Positions 266-6,600 of a stretch of 16,743 nt of DNA are shown here, piece by piece. Each line of letters begins with the position of its first letter. Within the stretch, counting starts at the first letter, position 1. Location of the stretch: UHGV virus genome UHGV-0045952, one strand, 5' to 3'. A program made the position numbers and the translations under genes. Origin of the DNA: a virus. The notes under the pieces are model-generated. The model was not told where the DNA came from and did not search any database. It worked only from the letters and a program-made list of their open reading frames with translations.

Positions 266-459
266 TTCTTCCCACTCCGCAACATCGCATTCAGATATTT
301 GTTTTGATTCACTGATGGAAAAGAATTTCTCTTAAGCAATTCCTCTCTCGATGGCATTGGCTTTACGCGTTGGCGAATAATCATTTCTGCCGGAAGAATG
401 CCGGGATTGTATGCAAGTCCTCTCATGGTAAATTCCTCAGTCATTACTGATAGCGCCAT
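262..459 (-). CDS. Small hypothetical protein (55-65 aa depending on start)
   Basis: ORF in the coupled leftward array; internal ATG at 426 has a GAGGA Shine-Dalgarno about 8 nt upstream and is the more likely start. No family recognised. Confidence 0.35.
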
Positions 460-733
460 AGCGTGAGCGGTAATTACGCAGGCGCGGGTCGATATATTCA
501 GGGAATTTGTCTATTGTCGCTTTTCGCAACGGTCTCATTGCTGTTTCGTTTGTTCGGTCCTTCTCCTGTTTTAGCGCGAGTTGTATATCGCGTCGGTACA
601 TCCGTTCTGCTTTTGTTTCTGGTGTCAGAGCAAGAAACGCGTCGAAATTGTTTTTGATATTTTCCAGCACCTCCGCCTTGGAGCTACCGGAGCAATTGCG
701 CGGGTCATCCGCACCATACAGAGGCGCTGGCAT
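437..733 (-). CDS. Hypothetical protein, 98 aa
   Basis: ORF 23 nt downstream of the DUF669-like gene on the same strand, weak AAGG upstream of the ATG. No family recognised. Confidence 0.45.
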
Positions 734-756: not shown

Positions 757-1344
757 TCAGAAAGGAGGGTAATCGTTCTGGCTGTAACCATAATCATCTG
801 CATGATTATGGCTTACGTTTTTAGAGCGATTGTCTTTATCTTTGAGGCTGGCAACCATGTTGGCGATAGTTTCTGGTTGCTTGCCTTCCGCCTTTTCTTT
901 AAGGGTTTGACCTGTTTGTGCAATAAACGGGATGCGTATTTCCATCTGGTAGCTGTCTGCGCCAGTCTTTTTGTTTGTGGTTAATACTTTCTGGAGCACT
1001 AACCCGATTTTCTTTCCATGAAATTCAGGTGCAACAAATTTACTGGCGGAAGCCATATGCTGCGTTAATTGTCCAATCCCAGCACACCCCATCATGGCGT
1101 GAACGACATTTGCGCCAAATTTGTTTTCCGTTCCGTCATTTTTCTGAACACAGACGCTAAGATATTGGATTTTACGGCCGTCGTCGGATTCTCCAGAAAA
1201 CTCAATAAATTTGGCTCCTTTTTCTGATTGCTTTAGTTCTGCTTCAGTAATGGTAATGATATGGGCGCCAGTTTCGTTAATAAAACCACCTTGCCCTGCG
1301 GTCAGTGCTGCTTCTTCGTTATAAGTAAAAATCACGTTGCTCAT
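757..1344 (-). CDS. DUF669-like putative phage ssDNA-binding protein
   Basis: 195-aa ORF whose ATG overlaps the stop of the Sak4-like gene (ATGA); AAGGAAAA Shine-Dalgarno; C-terminus ends in an acidic/aromatic tail (...DDYGYSQNDYPPF) like the SSB C-terminal tip. DUF669 assignment is from memory of the family and its usual pairing with Sak4. Confidence 0.5.
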   Translation of the reverse strand: MSNVIFTYNEEAALTAGQGGFINETGAHIITITEAELKQSEKGAKFIEFSGESDDGRKIQYLSVCVQKNDGTENKFGANVVHAMMGCAGIGQLTQHMASASKFVAPEFHGKKIGLVLQKVLTTNKKTGADSYQMEIRIPFIAQTGQTLKEKAEGKQPETIANMVASLKDKDNRSKNVSHNHADDYGYSQNDYPPF

Positions 1345-2021
1345 GCGGCGTTTTCCTTAATTTGATGAACATTATTGATGCCGTAGTAATCACAAACAGT
1401 GGCATCGACGAAAGAGAGATCGTTATCAATCTCATTGGAATCAAACATTCCCATTGGGGATTTGACAGTGTCTGCACCGTTGTTTTTCGTGGTGAAAAAG
1501 AACTGGTCATCGCGGGTAAGAGTGCGAAGAACTATAGTAAACATGCCTTCGACAGTGATTTTCTCGTCCAGCATTTTGCCGATAGTTTTCATTTTCACGC
1601 GCCCCATAGGGGTTTCTTCGGTATGTGCAAGAAAATAGACTCTCAGGTCATCAGGTGCATCCTGTGCAGCCTTAATCACCTCCCATGCGTGGCGGCCTAT
1701 CTCAGTAAATTTATCAAACGATTTTTCTTCTGAGCGGCGCATAAACTCATTGCTCATCACATACTGGAAGTCATCAACAATAACGATTCTTTTTCCGTAT
1801 TCGTGAGCACGCTTAATTGCAGCAACTATTACGTCCCATTTGTCAGTGGTAACTACGGTTCCTTTTTTTGCTCTGGCATCCCATGCAAGCCAGTCTTTTG
1901 ATTTAAATGGTAGCGGCTTGCCTATTGGTTTTATAAGTATTGCTTCCTCTGGATTGATATTTCTCATGCTGGTTGATTTTCCGGTGCCAGATTCACCGAG
2001 TATTAATGTCGCAGTTCCCAT
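1341..2021 (-). CDS. Sak4-like RecA-fold ATPase (phage single-strand annealing/recombination protein)
   Basis: 226 aa; Walker A GESGTGKST at residues 9-17 and Walker B-like IVIVDDF; GAGG Shine-Dalgarno 6 nt before the ATG; sits in the early-left recombination position. Confidence 0.7.
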   Translation of the reverse strand: MGTATLILGESGTGKSTSMRNINPEEAILIKPIGKPLPFKSKDWLAWDARAKKGTVVTTDKWDVIVAAIKRAHEYGKRIVIVDDFQYVMSNEFMRRSEEKSFDKFTEIGRHAWEVIKAAQDAPDDLRVYFLAHTEETPMGRVKMKTIGKMLDEKITVEGMFTIVLRTLTRDDQFFFTTKNNGADTVKSPMGMFDSNEIDNDLSFVDATVCDYYGINNVHQIKENAA

Positions 2022-2218: not shown

Positions 2219-2454
2219 TTTGACCTCCATTTTCTGTAGGCTTCTACGGCTTCACGAAACATCTTTTCATCGCCAATAAAAGTGGCGATAGTGAATTTAG
2301 TCTGGATAGCCATAAGTGTTTTATCCATTTTTGGGAACTCCTGGCTGATTAAGTATGTCGATAAGGCGTTTCCATCCATCACGTAATTTACGTGTGATTC
2401 GTTCAAGTAAAGATTCGGAAGGGCAGCCAGCAACAGGCCACCCTGCAATGGCAT
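2215..2454 (-). CDS. Small hypothetical protein, start uncertain
   Basis: 79-aa track ORF; an internal start at 2328 (MDKTLMAIQ...) would give a 37-aa product coupled to the next gene. Overlaps the 2321..2461 ORF in another frame, so both cannot be fully real. Confidence 0.3.
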   Translation of the reverse strand: MPLQGGLLLAALPNLYLNESHVNYVMDGNALSTYLISQEFPKMDKTLMAIQTKFTIATFIGDEKMFREAVEAYRKWRSK

Positions 2455-2461
2455 ATTGCAT
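2321..2461 (-). CDS. Small hypothetical protein, 46 aa
   Basis: Part of track ORF 2321..2521, started at the ATG at 2461 which has an AAGGAG Shine-Dalgarno 6 nt upstream (MQYAIAGWPVAGCPSE...). Confidence 0.35.
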   Translation of the reverse strand: MQYAIAGWPVAGCPSESLLERITRKLRDGWKRLIDILNQPGVPKNG

Positions 2462-2520
2462 GGTGTGCTCCTTATTTATACATAACGAAAACGCCTCGAA
2501 TGAAGCGTTATTGGTATGCA

Positions 2521-2888: not shown

Positions 2889-3089
2889 TCAGGCAGCCTT
2901 GTTGTTCTGTTTACCAAGTTCTCTGGCAATCATTGCCGTCGTTCGTATTGCCCATTTATCGACATATTTCCCATCTTCCATTACAGGAAACATTTCTTCA
3001 GGCTTAACCATGCATTCCGATTGCAGCTTGCATCCATTGCATCGCTTGAATTGTCCACACCATTGATTCTTATCAATAGTCGTAGTCAT
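2889..3089 (-). CDS. Small four-cysteine (zinc-ribbon-like) protein
   Basis: 66-aa ORF with cysteines at positions 11, 17, 20 and 26 (CGQFKRCNGCKLQSEC); AGGA upstream of the ATG. Confidence 0.45.
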   Translation of the reverse strand: MTTTIDKNQWCGQFKRCNGCKLQSECMVKPEEMFPVMEDGKYVDKWAIRTTAMIARELGKQNNKAA

Positions 3090-3217: not shown

Positions 3218-3490
3218 TCATCTTGCTGTCAGTTGTTTTGATTTCCGGTAGCCTGCTGCGTAAAGAGCTACGTTCGGAAGACAAGTTGAACCTTCATATT
3301 TTCTGGTCAACGTTGTCAGAGTTATCACTTCTGCTCTCATTGCTGGTTTGCGCTTGCATTGCAAGACCACTCGTGAAGGGGTTGGCCTGTGTAGCTTGTC
3401 GGAGCTGATCGCCTCCTGACTTTGCAGATTTGCACGACGAGCTCTACGGCGAGAAGCTGCGGTTCCTTTAAATTCTGTTTTTCTGGACAT
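3218..3490 (-). CDS. N-like transcription antiterminator (phage 21-type arginine-rich motif)
   Basis: Track ORF 3218..3562 trimmed to the ATG at 3490, which has a GGAGGA Shine-Dalgarno 6 nt upstream. N-terminus MSRKTEFKGTAASRRRARRANL resembles the phage 21 N arginine-rich motif as I recall it. Candidate nutL and PL lie just upstream. Confidence 0.6.
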   Translation of the reverse strand: MSRKTEFKGTAASRRRARRANLQSQEAISSDKLHRPTPSRVVLQCKRKPAMRAEVITLTTLTRKYEGSTCLPNVALYAAGYRKSKQLTAR

Positions 3491-3607
3491 AGATTCCTCC
3501 CGAATAAACTTTGGCGATGCAATCTCGAAGCCCCTCCTGAGACGGTTGCTTCGGCATTGCATCCCACAGCTTATGTGGTTGGGTGATCTGGCTTTTCAGC
3601 CACGTAG

Positions 3608-3635
3608 TCGAGTGTTCGACGTTGTTTAAAGAGCC
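3608..3635 (-). promoter_or_regulatory. Candidate nutL (boxA-like plus boxB-like hairpin)
   Basis: On the minus strand: GGCTCTTTA, spacer AACAAC, then hairpin GTCGA-ACAC-TCGAC. Same architecture as the candidate nutR (CGCTCTTTG, TAACAAC, hairpin); about 120 nt upstream of the N-like start. Confidence 0.45.
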
Positions 3636-3681
3636 TGCCAGTCTGTTCCGTTTGGCTTCCAGCTTCCTGCTGATGGCGATA

Positions 3682-3710
3682 ATAATGAACTAATAGTTCG
3701 AAATTATCAA
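3682..3710 (-). promoter_or_regulatory. Candidate PL promoter with operator-like repeats nearby
   Basis: Minus strand -35 TTGATA (plus 3705..3710), 17-nt spacer, -10 CATTAT (plus 3682..3687). Flanked by three copies of a TACGAAAT / TTCGAAAT motif (about 3696..3758) that recurs in the cI-cro intergenic region. Confidence 0.35.
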
Positions 3711-3907
3711 GAACTATTGGTACGAAATTTTGTGATTTATTAACTCTACGAAATATGATTTTGATATATAAGGAAATTTATTTTTGTAAAGGTTGAAGAC
3801 TGGTCAGTTGTGGAGAAAGAATGATTTTGCTGGCGTGTTGGTTTGCGGTTTACCACATGTGCGGTTGTTAAGTCTGTGAGGCAAAGAAAACCCGGCGCTG
3901 AGGCCGG

Positions 3908-3997
3908 NNNNNNNNNNNNNNNNNNNNNNNNNNNNNNNNNNNNNNNNNNNNNNNNNNNNNNNNNNNNNNNNNNNNNNNNNNNNNNNNNNNNNNNNNN
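3908..3997. other. Assembly gap (90 N)
   Basis: Run of N; followed by low-complexity sequence aaaaaaacccccgggcgggggggcgggg (3998..4025) that looks like read-end artefact. Confidence 0.95.
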
Positions 3998-4032
3998 AAA
4001 AAAACCCCCGGGCGGGGGGGCGGGGATGAGGA

Positions 4033-5031
4033 TTATGTTATCTCTTTGACATAAAGTATTATCGCGGACTTTATTTCACCATCTAGTTCTTTTGCGTTGA
4101 TTGACAAATGAACTGGTTTTCTATCCCACTCAGCTTGCTGAAGAGCTTTTTTATGCTCGGATGCGTCGAGAAAAACATCTTGTACTATGCACGATATTCT
4201 TAGATCGGAGTCAACATTTCTCACTTGCACTTTGAAGCTCTCTGGATCAGTGGAGTCAACCTTTTCAATGCGATAATTTCCATCAAGGCGGATCTCCATT
4301 GATTTCCGCCTTGCATTTGTAGTGAGGGTTTTGGATAGATCTGCATCCAATACAACGCCATCAATCTGAGCTGTATCAGCCTTGACAAATGATTTAACTA
4401 TGTCGGTTTTTGCGTCATGAGCAAGTCTTTCCATGTTGTCTAGCTTGGGTTTTTCGCTAATAATCTGAGTCAATAATTCACTTCGTTTTGTTTCCTGCTC
4501 AGACATGAAGCGCATGGTCGCAAGGTGTTCACGCTCAGACTCGCTTTTTACTTCTGCCATGCGAATCTCTTTGCGGTCTTCTAGATATTTTTTGAATAGG
4601 ACGACGCCGCCCCATATAAGAGCGACCCCTAAAACTGTAATAACGATCTCTTGAGGGCCCACTTTACTCACCGCAGTTTGTATAACCTCACCCATGAACC
4701 CATCCATATTAACTTCTATCAAGGACGAGCCATTCTCAACATTCACCTGAATTTCGATAGCTTCCTTCTCTTCTTTTGAAAGCTTTCTTGGGTCAGGAAC
4801 TCCGTACTTTAACAATGCATAAGCTCGGTTTATTTGGGCCTGCATTTCAACAAAACCCTTCATGACAGAAGGAGTCAAACTGCCATGAAATTTGTCACCA
4901 GTAAGACGGAAGGTTAAGTTAGGCCACCCTTCAAATGATATTCCATCAGGAAGATCTTGCCCAGCGATGTACATCTCAACAAAACGCAAAGCATCTTCTT
5001 CGGAATGAATAACCGCCGTGCTGATTTCCAA
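4033..5031 (-). CDS. Unknown 332-aa single-pass membrane protein in the rexA-equivalent position (candidate exclusion / abortive-infection gene)
   Basis: Long ORF on the cI strand, directly downstream of cI with a 121-bp spacer. Apparent TTG start at 5031 with a GAGG Shine-Dalgarno 7 nt upstream. One hydrophobic segment at residues about 128-146 (IVITVLGVALIWGGVVLF) followed by a charged, helix-like stretch. No kinase or nuclease motif seen by eye. Confidence 0.55.
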   Translation of the reverse strand: MEISTAVIHSEEDALRFVEMYIAGQDLPDGISFEGWPNLTFRLTGDKFHGSLTPSVMKGFVEMQAQINRAYALLKYGVPDPRKLSKEEKEAIEIQVNVENGSSLIEVNMDGFMGEVIQTAVSKVGPQEIVITVLGVALIWGGVVLFKKYLEDRKEIRMAEVKSESEREHLATMRFMSEQETKRSELLTQIISEKPKLDNMERLAHDAKTDIVKSFVKADTAQIDGVVLDADLSKTLTTNARRKSMEIRLDGNYRIEKVDSTDPESFKVQVRNVDSDLRISCIVQDVFLDASEHKKALQQAEWDRKPVHLSINAKELDGEIKSAIILYVKEIT

Positions 5032-5152
5032 GACTAAGCCTCTATAATTATTAATAATTTCAAATGATTGCTGTTTTTATTAGGAGACATTTAGCCATTC
5101 ATCACCCAAACGTCTCTTCAGGCCACTGGTTACCAGCTATGTGACGATGAAG

Positions 5153-5860
5153 TCACGAACTTTTCAGCCATTCCCTTGCCTCGATGTCATCCAGATGGCG
5201 AGACTGCTTCAGAATACCAGCAACATACTCCACCTTTGCTACTTGATGATAAGGCAACGTTATTGGCCTGTGGTCCTGGTTGATGCTTGTAAATTGGTAT
5301 TCTCCATCTCTGTCATAGCCAAGAACCTTAATCATGTTGTGTCCTTCAACGGTTCTGACAAACACCTCATCACCCGGGAATACTTTGGTGTTAGGCTCAA
5401 TGAGTACATATTCTCCTGATTTTATTCTGGGCCACATGCTGTCTCCTTTCACACGAAGACCAAAGGCATCTGGATCATCGCTATAAATCTTGAGCCACCC
5501 ATCGCGCTCTTCGGTCATCTCGATGGCACCATCAACACCAAGAATTGCCTCACCAACCACGCGCACTAACCCTTTTTTTAATTTGCCAACAAATGAAAGA
5601 GTATCTTCATCATTCGCTCCATTTAACGAAGTGCCGTGCTGAAGCCACACAACATCAACGTTTAGAAATTTCGCAAGCGCATTCATTTTTTCCTGACGTG
5701 GTAAAGACTCAGCATTAAACCATTTGCTAACGCCTTTGGACGAAAGAGAAAGGGCGCGGGCTATGGCCATTCCCCTACCATGTTCATCAAGACCAGCTTC
5801 TTTACAGGCTTGCGCTAGCCGCTGGGCGAATTCTTTGCGCACTTTTTCATTCTGAACCAT
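5153..5860 (-). CDS. cI: cI-like prophage repressor (N-terminal HTH, C-terminal S24 LexA-like domain)
   Basis: 235 aa; C-terminal VKGDSMWPRIKSGEYVLIEP ... GDEVFVRTVEGHNMIKVL matches the S24 self-cleaving peptidase fold; divergent from a Cro-like gene; no Shine-Dalgarno upstream, consistent with a leaderless PRM transcript. Confidence 0.85.
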   Translation of the reverse strand: MVQNEKVRKEFAQRLAQACKEAGLDEHGRGMAIARALSLSSKGVSKWFNAESLPRQEKMNALAKFLNVDVVWLQHGTSLNGANDEDTLSFVGKLKKGLVRVVGEAILGVDGAIEMTEERDGWLKIYSDDPDAFGLRVKGDSMWPRIKSGEYVLIEPNTKVFPGDEVFVRTVEGHNMIKVLGYDRDGEYQFTSINQDHRPITLPYHQVAKVEYVAGILKQSRHLDDIEAREWLKSS

Positions 5861-5938
5861 GAGTACGATACTAAAGCACTTGCAAAAACTTTCAGTTCAA
5901 TCATAATGCGTACTGAAAGTACGAAAAAGGATATCCAC
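5861..5938. promoter_or_regulatory. cI-cro intergenic control region (candidate OR operators, PR and PRM)
   Basis: Palindrome CGTACT-GAA-AGTACG (5909..5923), imperfect palindrome AGTACGATACT (5862..5872), inverted repeat ACTTTCAGT (5888..5896) / ACTGAAAGT (5912..5920). Candidate PR: -35 TTGCAA 5881..5886, -10 ATAATG 5903..5908. Candidate PRM -10 TAGTAT (minus, plus 5868..5873) placing the start at the cI ATG. Confidence 0.55.
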
Positions 5939-6166
5939 ATGCAAAATCTTGATGAGCCGATTAAAGGTGTCGGCATCCCTGAAGTTGCGAAGGCTTGTGG
6001 AGTTAGCGAAAGGGCTGTCTATAAGTGGCTCAAAAACGGCTTCCTCCCTAAGACTGAGTTTTTTGGGAAAACGAAATATGCATCAAAAATCGAAGAGATT
6101 TCTGGTGGCAAATATCAAGCAAGCGAAATGCTTGAAATAAGCAAAAAGAACCTTTTGGCAGCATAA
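5939..6166 (+). CDS. cro: Cro-like HTH repressor
   Basis: Track ORF 5906..6166 trimmed to the ATG at 5939 (AGGA about 8 nt upstream), because the 5906 start would sit inside the predicted PR. HTH-like segment IPEVAKACGVSERAVYKWLK. Confidence 0.6.
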   Translation: MQNLDEPIKGVGIPEVAKACGVSERAVYKWLKNGFLPKTEFFGKTKYASKIEEISGGKYQASEMLEISKKNLLAA

Positions 6167-6303: not shown

Positions 6304-6600
6304 ATGACACAAGCAAGTTACAGCAAGCCAACACAGCGTGACGTTGATCGCGCAGAAACAGATTTACTCATCAACCTGTCAACGCTTACCCAGCGCGGTC
6401 TGGCAAAGATGATTGGCTGTCATGAATCGAAGATAAGCAGAACGGACTGGAGATTTATTGCTTCGGTCTTGTGTGCTTTCGGAATGGCATCAGACATCAG
6501 TCCGATTAGCAGGGCTTTTAAGTATGCGCTTGATGAAATCACAAAGAAAAAATCCCCGGCTGCCACCGAGGATTTTAAGCAAATTGATATGCAATTCTGA
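6304..6600 (+). CDS. cII: CII-like transcriptional activator
   Basis: 98 aa; C-terminus ...[19 protein letters not shown] closely parallels lambda CII ...TNKKRPAATERSEQIQMEF as I recall it; HTH segment before it; position between cro and O. Confidence 0.8.

Follow-up and report, generated by a model that had tools for sequence, protein, structure and literature searches.

The slot beside the repressor gene cI of lambdoid prophages is where phage exclusion (rex) was first found, and new systems are still emerging there. Lambda carries rexA-rexB at this place; RexB has several membrane helices, and RexA itself biases the lambda switch. We analyzed a stretch of 16,743 nucleotides from a virus (UHGV virus genome UHGV-0045952), hereafter the window, in which the rexAB slot is filled by one open reading frame (ORF) encoding 332 residues, referred to as ORF332. 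The second described system that invites comparison is PdpSau of Staphylococcus aureus prophages, the product of a prophage accessory gene adjoining the lysis module: it is membrane-anchored, carries an OB-like cytoplasmic domain and aborts Kayvirus infection with loss of the membrane potential, and lactococcal AbiP has been described as similar to it (PMC10127798). ORF332 is a mobile, self-contained one-gene accessory cassette (leader, gene and terminator; 1.15 kb), whose product begins with a novel acidic domain, continues through a single conserved hydrophobic helix, flanked on its C-terminal side by a Lys/Arg-rich stretch, and through charged helices, and closes with an OB fold; it is a good candidate for a new single-gene anti-phage defense.

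ORF332 belongs to a large family with one architecture

The gene and its start signal read as follows.

4033..5031, minus strand: ORF332, 332 residues plus stop codon, TTG start; member of phrog_6191, identical to RefSeq WP_000406300.1
5039..5042, minus strand: GAGG Shine-Dalgarno sequence, 7 nt upstream of the TTG, read directly

The first-pass annotation, made from the DNA letters, had proposed these coordinates, the TTG start, the GAGG and a distance of 121 nt from the cI stop, all of which proved correct on re-reading: the cI stop codon lies at 5153-5155, leaving a spacer of 121 nt to ORF332. Homologs share the aligned start position, which supports the TTG. When 5.8 billion proteins were searched, 122 matched, nearly all 329–359 residues long with a query coverage of 90–100%, from Enterobacterales, Pseudomonas, Pasteurellaceae, Oceanospirillaceae and Caballeronia. 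With a profile, 1,550 proteins were retrieved from 1.84 billion cluster representatives at E ≤ 1e-3 (602 of them at E ≤ 1e-30), almost all of 320–360 residues; these roughly 1,550 related clusters, counted at 50% identity, have the length and architecture of ORF332 in common. The hosts of the family extend from Enterobacterales to Moraxella, Psychrobacter and Caballeronia, and members also occur in free-living marine and soil bacteria. Among 5,426 complete Escherichia coli genomes, 96 carry a member, 9 of them this allele (≥99.9% identity) and 87 a type with about 65% DNA identity (WP_000357056.1). Altogether, ORF332 is a real, strongly conserved gene.

ORF332 matches the phrog_6191 profile end to end (E 1.1e-137, 459.7 bits, residues 4–331 on positions 6–334 of 338). 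This is its own family, one without assigned function, which names the protein and explains nothing; the RefSeq label of WP_000406300.1 is "hypothetical protein". Apart from this full-length match, the initial description of the protein as unrecognized stood: scans with the PADLOC and NCBIfam models gave zero matches at E ≤ 1 and the Pfam scan gave only a sub-threshold match to aRib. No recurrent family emerged from a member-wise Pfam scan of 48 homologs, nothing recurrent from a sequence-profile search of the Protein Data Bank (PDB), and no Pfam-labeled relatives from another profile search, word-indexed and based on 73 aligned sequences; literature searches on the accessions and the PHROG identifier found nothing. 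The library scans of ORF332 and the 48 homologs likewise revealed no enzyme family match, signal peptide, adhesin or toxin signature, and an invariant His, Cys or Asp pattern suggestive of catalysis is not evident in the homolog alignment.

The slot between cI and pL is a cargo hotspot

PHROG scans place the window in a lambdoid/P22-like prophage, of which it covers the immunity and early region; ORF332, encoded on the strand of cI, is the sole gene separating cI from the pL/N region. The features that define the slot are listed below.

5153..5860, minus strand: cI-type repressor (HTH and S24 peptidase), 235 residues, directly upstream of ORF332 on the same strand
5906..6166, plus strand: Cro-like repressor, divergent from cI, on the OR side of the immunity region
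6304-6600, plus strand: cII (PHROG scan)
3682..3710, minus strand: pL-like promoter match (TTGATA-17-CATTAT) upstream of the N-like gene, on the OL/pL side; a consensus match only
3218..3562, minus strand: N-like antiterminator gene (PHROG scan)
5102..5128, minus strand: fossil of a lambda-type cI 3' end, CAGTGGCCTGAAGAGACGTTTGGGTGA (QWPEETFG, stop), at the upstream edge of the shared cassette

An intrinsic terminator lies 3' of ORF332, and no terminator-like site was found before the gene. E. coli ECO20 encodes the identical protein after a lambda-type cI of 237 residues, at the place of rexA-rexB in lambda, and the pL side there carries lambda-like TATCACCGC operators; the ECO20 repressor is presumably lambda cI in all essentials. 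The proposal that ORF332 occupies the rexAB slot is thus borne out both by its solitary position in the window and by its replacement of rexAB beside a lambda-type cI. The same holds for the idea that this slot is a hotspot for cargo: other E. coli prophages sharing the flanks of the window (matching 3626-4019 and 5130-5200) carry DUF2335, SDH Clp-fold serine protease or P63C proteins in it, and phages mEp234 and HK106, which have ECO20-type immunity, carry hicAB in the cI-adjacent slot. The slot between cI and pL is a cargo hotspot, rich enough to be mined systematically.

The spacer between cI and ORF332 retains a trace of how the cassette reached its present neighbor. Letter for letter, the 27-nt fossil matches the final eight codons of the ECO20 cI together with its stop codon; therefore the cassette was once joined to a lambda-type cI, and the 235-residue allele was later swapped in by recombination at the cI 3' end. 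Note that a search for operator repeats in the window found only a short shared motif, TACGAAA (3721, 3747 and 5920), on which no operator claim rests.

Further along, the leftward operon of the window contains counter-defense and recombination genes, listed here with the only Rfam match in the window.

437-733, minus strand: abc2 (anti-RecBCD; PHROG scan)
757-1344, minus strand: SSB (PHROG scan)
1341-2021, minus strand: Sak4-like annealase (PHROG scan)
2889-3089, minus strand: ral (PHROG scan)
2416-2474, minus strand: Lambda_thermo, the cIII thermoregulator (Rfam, 88.5 bits)

The assembly gap is an artifact

The 3' end of the cassette is interrupted in the window by a run of N, which was confirmed at 3908..3997 and starts 35 nt past the ORF332 stop codon.

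3882..3907, minus strand: intrinsic terminator that closes the cassette, with the stem CCGGCC..GCGCCGG followed by GTTTTCTTTG; interrupted by the N run
3908..4023, no strand: N run (3908-3997) and 26 nt of G/C-rich sequence (3998-4023); a scaffolding artifact, not hidden sequence

It had been suggested that a partner gene, for example a RexB-like channel, might be missing here, and the closeness of the N run to the stop codon speaks for such a two-gene Rex-like system with one gene lost in the gap. The region is contiguous, however, in three closed E. coli genomes that carry the gene in identical form: both flanks are joined directly at the terminator, which is complete and directly follows the ORF332 stop codon, with nothing between. 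A partner gene inside the gap is thereby ruled out, and no neighbor of the family is conserved across its contexts, so that a two-gene system appears vanishingly improbable. The 26 nt at 3998-4023 are absent from the closed genomes and look like an error-laden, degraded second copy of the terminator hairpin. A 68-codon ORF spanning the gap (3843-4049, plus strand) is an assembly artifact.

The cassette moves as a single gene

Proteins 98–100% identical to ORF332 adjoin at least five repressor alleles, some of which are only 15–27% identical to each other; in IMG/VR loci, the neighboring repressors have 235, 237, 233/240 and 155 residues. An S24-type repressor lies directly upstream on the same strand in 22 of 101 loci, including that of Moraxella phage Mcat17, whose family member is 33% identical to ORF332. 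A second slot adjoins the antiterminator gene Q: in 53 of 115 loci, the gene stands alone, convergent with Q and antisense to the late operon, ahead of methylase and holin genes, and a promoter scan of the region upstream of the gene in this slot gave weak matches only. The type about 65% identical lies antisense in this way in avian pathogenic E. coli (APEC) O78 (locus L109, 5973-6992) and in locus L041 (7971-8990), its 3' end about 15 bp from the Q stop; read-through from it would run antisense to Q, reminiscent of lambda paQ. Other members are found in tail regions, after tail-fiber and J genes and before a tape-measure gene. That no neighbor is conserved across these contexts argues that the gene acts alone.

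Family members also accompany defense genes. In one Pasteurellaceae prophage (L108, 5367-8002), a cI gene (S24) is followed by a gene for a KilA-N protein of 283 residues, BstA-like in position and domain, and then by a family member, so that two candidate defense genes are stacked 3' of the repressor. In Pasteurella phage Pmp14 (L014, 3668-4922), a type VI retron (HTH_VI plus RT_VI, the latter a reverse transcriptase domain; annotated 'polymerase') lies directly upstream of the family member; a toxin/repressor (toxin-antitoxin) pair nearby makes this a small defense cluster at the genome end. Outside phages, one member adjoins a type I restriction-modification system, and another has a Type ISP restriction enzyme, GmrSD and AHH as its neighbors. 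The latter belongs to a defense island on an Oceanospirillaceae contig (L007, 3654-12805), which reads GmrSD_C, a 331-residue protein, the family member, a Type ISP enzyme of 1,646 residues and an AHH nuclease. The 331-residue neighbor (4591-5586) is unannotated and has no Pfam match; a paralogous relation to the family member was ruled out, the two showing zero similarity. Altogether, the cassette prefers slots whose transcription occurs in lysogens or does not depend on the late operon, and it accompanies defense genes.

Slots of this kind are not reserved for defense. The Q-lysis and cI-adjacent slots also hold non-defense morons such as toxins and serum-resistance genes, and the APEC O78 prophage that carries a family member carries iss as well. 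ORF332 could accordingly be a lysogenic-conversion factor unrelated to phages, with an envelope, stress or virulence function of benefit to the host. We consider this very unlikely, given that the protein displays no signal peptide, adhesin, toxin or enzyme signature and that a niche-specific virulence role fits poorly with a family found beside restriction systems and in free-living bacteria from marine and soil habitats.

Predicted structure and topology

A confident structural model of ORF332 was built with AlphaFold2 on a 48-sequence alignment; its predicted local distance difference test score (pLDDT) is 87 and its predicted template modeling score (pTM) 0.82. The secondary structure comprises an N-terminal α/β domain (residues ~1–124), helices (126–217) and a β-rich C-terminal domain (220–332), in agreement with the outline drawn beforehand from the sequence (N-terminal domain, hydrophobic helix, charged stretch, C-terminal domain). 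The parts downstream of the N-terminal domain map as follows.

4594..4647, minus strand: conserved hydrophobic helix, residues 129–146 (IVITVLGVALIWGGVVLF), with a small-residue face (G135, A137, G141, G142), then KKYLEDRKEIR
4381..4593, minus strand: charged helical region, residues 147–217, with AlphaFold2 helices 143–160, 164–171, 178–193 and 195–217
4036..4299, minus strand: C-terminal OB-fold domain, residues ~245–332, with a conserved AEWxRKPVxLSINA motif (E301, W302, R304, L309, N312, A313)

The C-terminal domain of the model is a five-stranded closed β-barrel with a helix between strands 3 and 4, the arrangement that defines the OB-fold superfamily. Residues 129–146 form the sole hydrophobic segment of ORF332, and its position is kept in all 48 aligned homologs. 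The helix is rich in Gly, Ala, Ser and Thr; across the 48 homologs, its 19-residue Kyte-Doolittle maxima range from 1.15 to 2.33, and a crude Hessa insertion-energy sum is below 0 in 24 of them. The 12-residue flanks contain on average 0.94 Lys and Arg on the N side vs 3.96 on the C side. A net charge of −8 makes the N-terminal domain acidic, and it has no signal peptide; residues 147–332, C-terminal to the helix, carry a net charge of −3, and the OB domain, counted from its sequence, is net acidic. The protein could be oriented N-out/C-in, or could be cytoplasmic with a helix that inserts conditionally.

The first of these topologies would suit superinfection exclusion by blocked DNA entry, in which a single-pass inner-membrane protein exposes its acidic N-terminal domain to the periplasm and disturbs the ejection machinery or its membrane receptor, in the manner of P22 SieA, T4 Imm or HK97 gp15. 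The asymmetry of the flanking charges predicts N-out/C-in, the net charge of −8 of the N-terminal domain favors translocation, and the family occupies lysogen-expressed slots, including one inside tail-gene regions, where HK97 gp15 is also encoded. However, the protein lacks a signal peptide, and N-tail export would have to move a long domain; most known entry blockers are small and have several membrane helices, and a host span from Enterobacterales to Moraxella, Psychrobacter and Caballeronia speaks against the entry route of one phage. We therefore regard an entry block as distinctly improbable.

Comparison of the model with BFVD by Foldseek gave three full-length, poorly superposable matches, A0A8S5QA00, Q6NE06 and A0A8S5T657 (E ~1e-5, TM-score 0.2–0.3). 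All three are phage proteins of 270–381 residues, aligned over the whole model, and their functions are not known. One of the three is a DUF6575 protein, matched at E 1.7e-5 and probability 1.0 but with a TM-score of 0.2, and Pfam detects DUF6575 in none of the 48 family members, nor does PADLOC match ORF332. DUF6575 is listed among validated defense systems by Vassallo et al. 2022; no link to one specific PD system emerged.

A predicted lysogen-expressed membrane defense

From the position of ORF332, its neighbors and its architecture, we tentatively read it as a lysogen-expressed, membrane-acting exclusion or abortive-infection protein; its most likely role, we predict, is to protect the lysogen from other phages by an action at the inner membrane. 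The gene would be cotranscribed with cI from PRM/PRE in lysogens. The soluble domains would recognize a product of an infecting phage, probably through the OB fold with its conserved AEWxR...SINA patch, upon which the small-residue-rich hydrophobic helices may associate into a membrane lesion, so that the cell would be depolarized and the infection aborted. The logic of a RexA sensor and a RexB membrane effector would thus be fused in one polypeptide. More speculatively, the OB domains might assemble into a ring, as in the B pentamers of AB5 toxins, which are the best structural matches, and so gather the helices.

Several observations weigh against this proposal. The promoter scan of the cI-ORF332 spacer found no promoter belonging to the gene itself in the rex slot; ORF332 lacks similarity to PADLOC models at E ≤ 1, and WP_000406300 was not found in the supplementary files of DefensePredictor. 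The helix at 129–146 is real and conserved, yet only marginally membrane-competent in half of the family; N-out/C-in insertion according to the positive-inside rule needs signal-peptide-less export of a 127-residue N-terminal domain, which is unusual; and the pTM of 0.82 hints that all parts may pack together like a soluble protein. In PdpSau and AbiP the nucleic-acid-binding domain is basic, in contrast to the acidic OB domain of ORF332. Finally, relatives in Mu-like phages either immediately precede holin/SLT, on the forward strand, or belong to the early region, and a distant subfamily in Pasteurellaceae prophages is part of the leftward early region, alongside Bro-N, AntA, ERF and SSB genes.

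These last placements, on the strand of early or lysis genes, fit a role in the phage's own lytic cycle. ORF332 would then be an early or middle accessory for host takeover, counter-defense, lysis timing or the lysis-lysogeny decision, a view with which the nearby counter-defense genes ral and abc2 are consistent, as is the fact that OB folds often bind single-stranded DNA (ssDNA) or proteins of DNA metabolism. In lambdoid prophages, by contrast, the gene belongs to the repressor transcription unit or runs antisense to the late operon; both arrangements fit lysogen rather than lytic expression, and family members also lie outside phages beside restriction systems; we judge a function in the phage cycle rather unlikely.

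The reading of ORF332 as a lysogen-expressed membrane defense has a bolder form, which we give a low probability: the family may be a widespread class of single-protein abortive-infection systems that are cytoplasmic with a buried helix, sense a phage product through the OB fold and the novel domain, assemble into rings and insert the helix as a pore. If so, one polypeptide would do the jobs of RexA and RexB, and this solution would be common to lambdoid, Mu-like and other temperate phages and to defense islands of Proteobacteria. In either form, a defensive ORF332 would represent a new protein family, probably with a new sensor domain, and would offer a one-gene model of a soluble sensor coupled to a membrane effector. 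With its roughly 1,550 clusters at 50% identity, this large family has a single, fixed architecture and no entry in Pfam, NCBIfam or PADLOC, and it travels as one gene among several classic moron slots and defense islands.

Comparison with known systems

Some comparisons can be settled quickly. No family match in Pfam or PHROG points to SieB or SieA, which are small multi-helix proteins, whereas ORF332 has 332 residues and one hydrophobic helix. The N-terminal KilA-N domain that characterizes BstA has no match in ORF332 or in the 48 members. The proximity to a retron in Pmp14 does not make the family a retron effector, a possibility that was ruled out: the reverse transcriptase gene is a neighbor solely in Pmp14, close Pasteurellaceae relatives lack it, and type VI retrons have a small-protein toxin of their own (10.1101/2025.10.22.683967). 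Among OB-fold proteins, the AB5 toxin B subunits, SSB/PriB/RPA, SilF and CipA share 4–18% sequence identity with the ORF332 domain. The likeness shown to AB5 B subunits, which are secreted, pentameric and glycan-binding, is one of fold; ORF332 has no signal peptide or secretion. Unlike ssDNA binders, its OB domain is net acidic, and in ORF332 the domain is joined to a hydrophobic helix and to another, novel domain.

Like PdpSau and AbiP, ORF332 is a single-gene system that combines one membrane helix with an OB-type soluble domain, and many of its relatives adjoin the lysis module, as PdpSau does. The helix is central in ORF332 (129–146), not N-terminal, and is preceded by an additional domain of 125 residues. 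Homology to PdpSau was ruled out by aligning our family alignment (A5) with ORF016 of phage 53 (278 residues), taken as PdpSau by its size and its position after holin and amidase: the hhalign probability was 0.2%, and only the hydrophobic helices were aligned.

In genomic position, ORF332 parallels lambda RexA/RexB. Both directly follow cI on its strand, within the immunity region, and end at a terminator before pL; both pair a membrane-associated element with soluble, possibly sensing, parts. In contrast to rexAB, ORF332 is a single gene, with no second gene in the three closed genomes, and it has one marginal hydrophobic helix, its soluble part consisting of an OB fold and a novel domain rather than the RexA fold. 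Sequence homology to RexA or RexB was not detected, phrog_6191 being the only match at E ≤ 1 in the Pfam, PHROG and PADLOC libraries, which are known to include Rex models.

The type of element is already known, as rex-slot cargo or moron, and it is the protein family, its N-terminal domain and its architecture that are uncharacterized. Like the classical lambdoid morons, such as hicAB in mEp234/HK106 and stx after Q, ORF332 is inserted between genes that are adjacent in relatives, brings its own terminator, occupies several alternative slots and has a slightly lower GC content (42% vs 45%). Unlike them, it has no detectable promoter of its own in the cI slot, where it probably relies on the repressor promoters.
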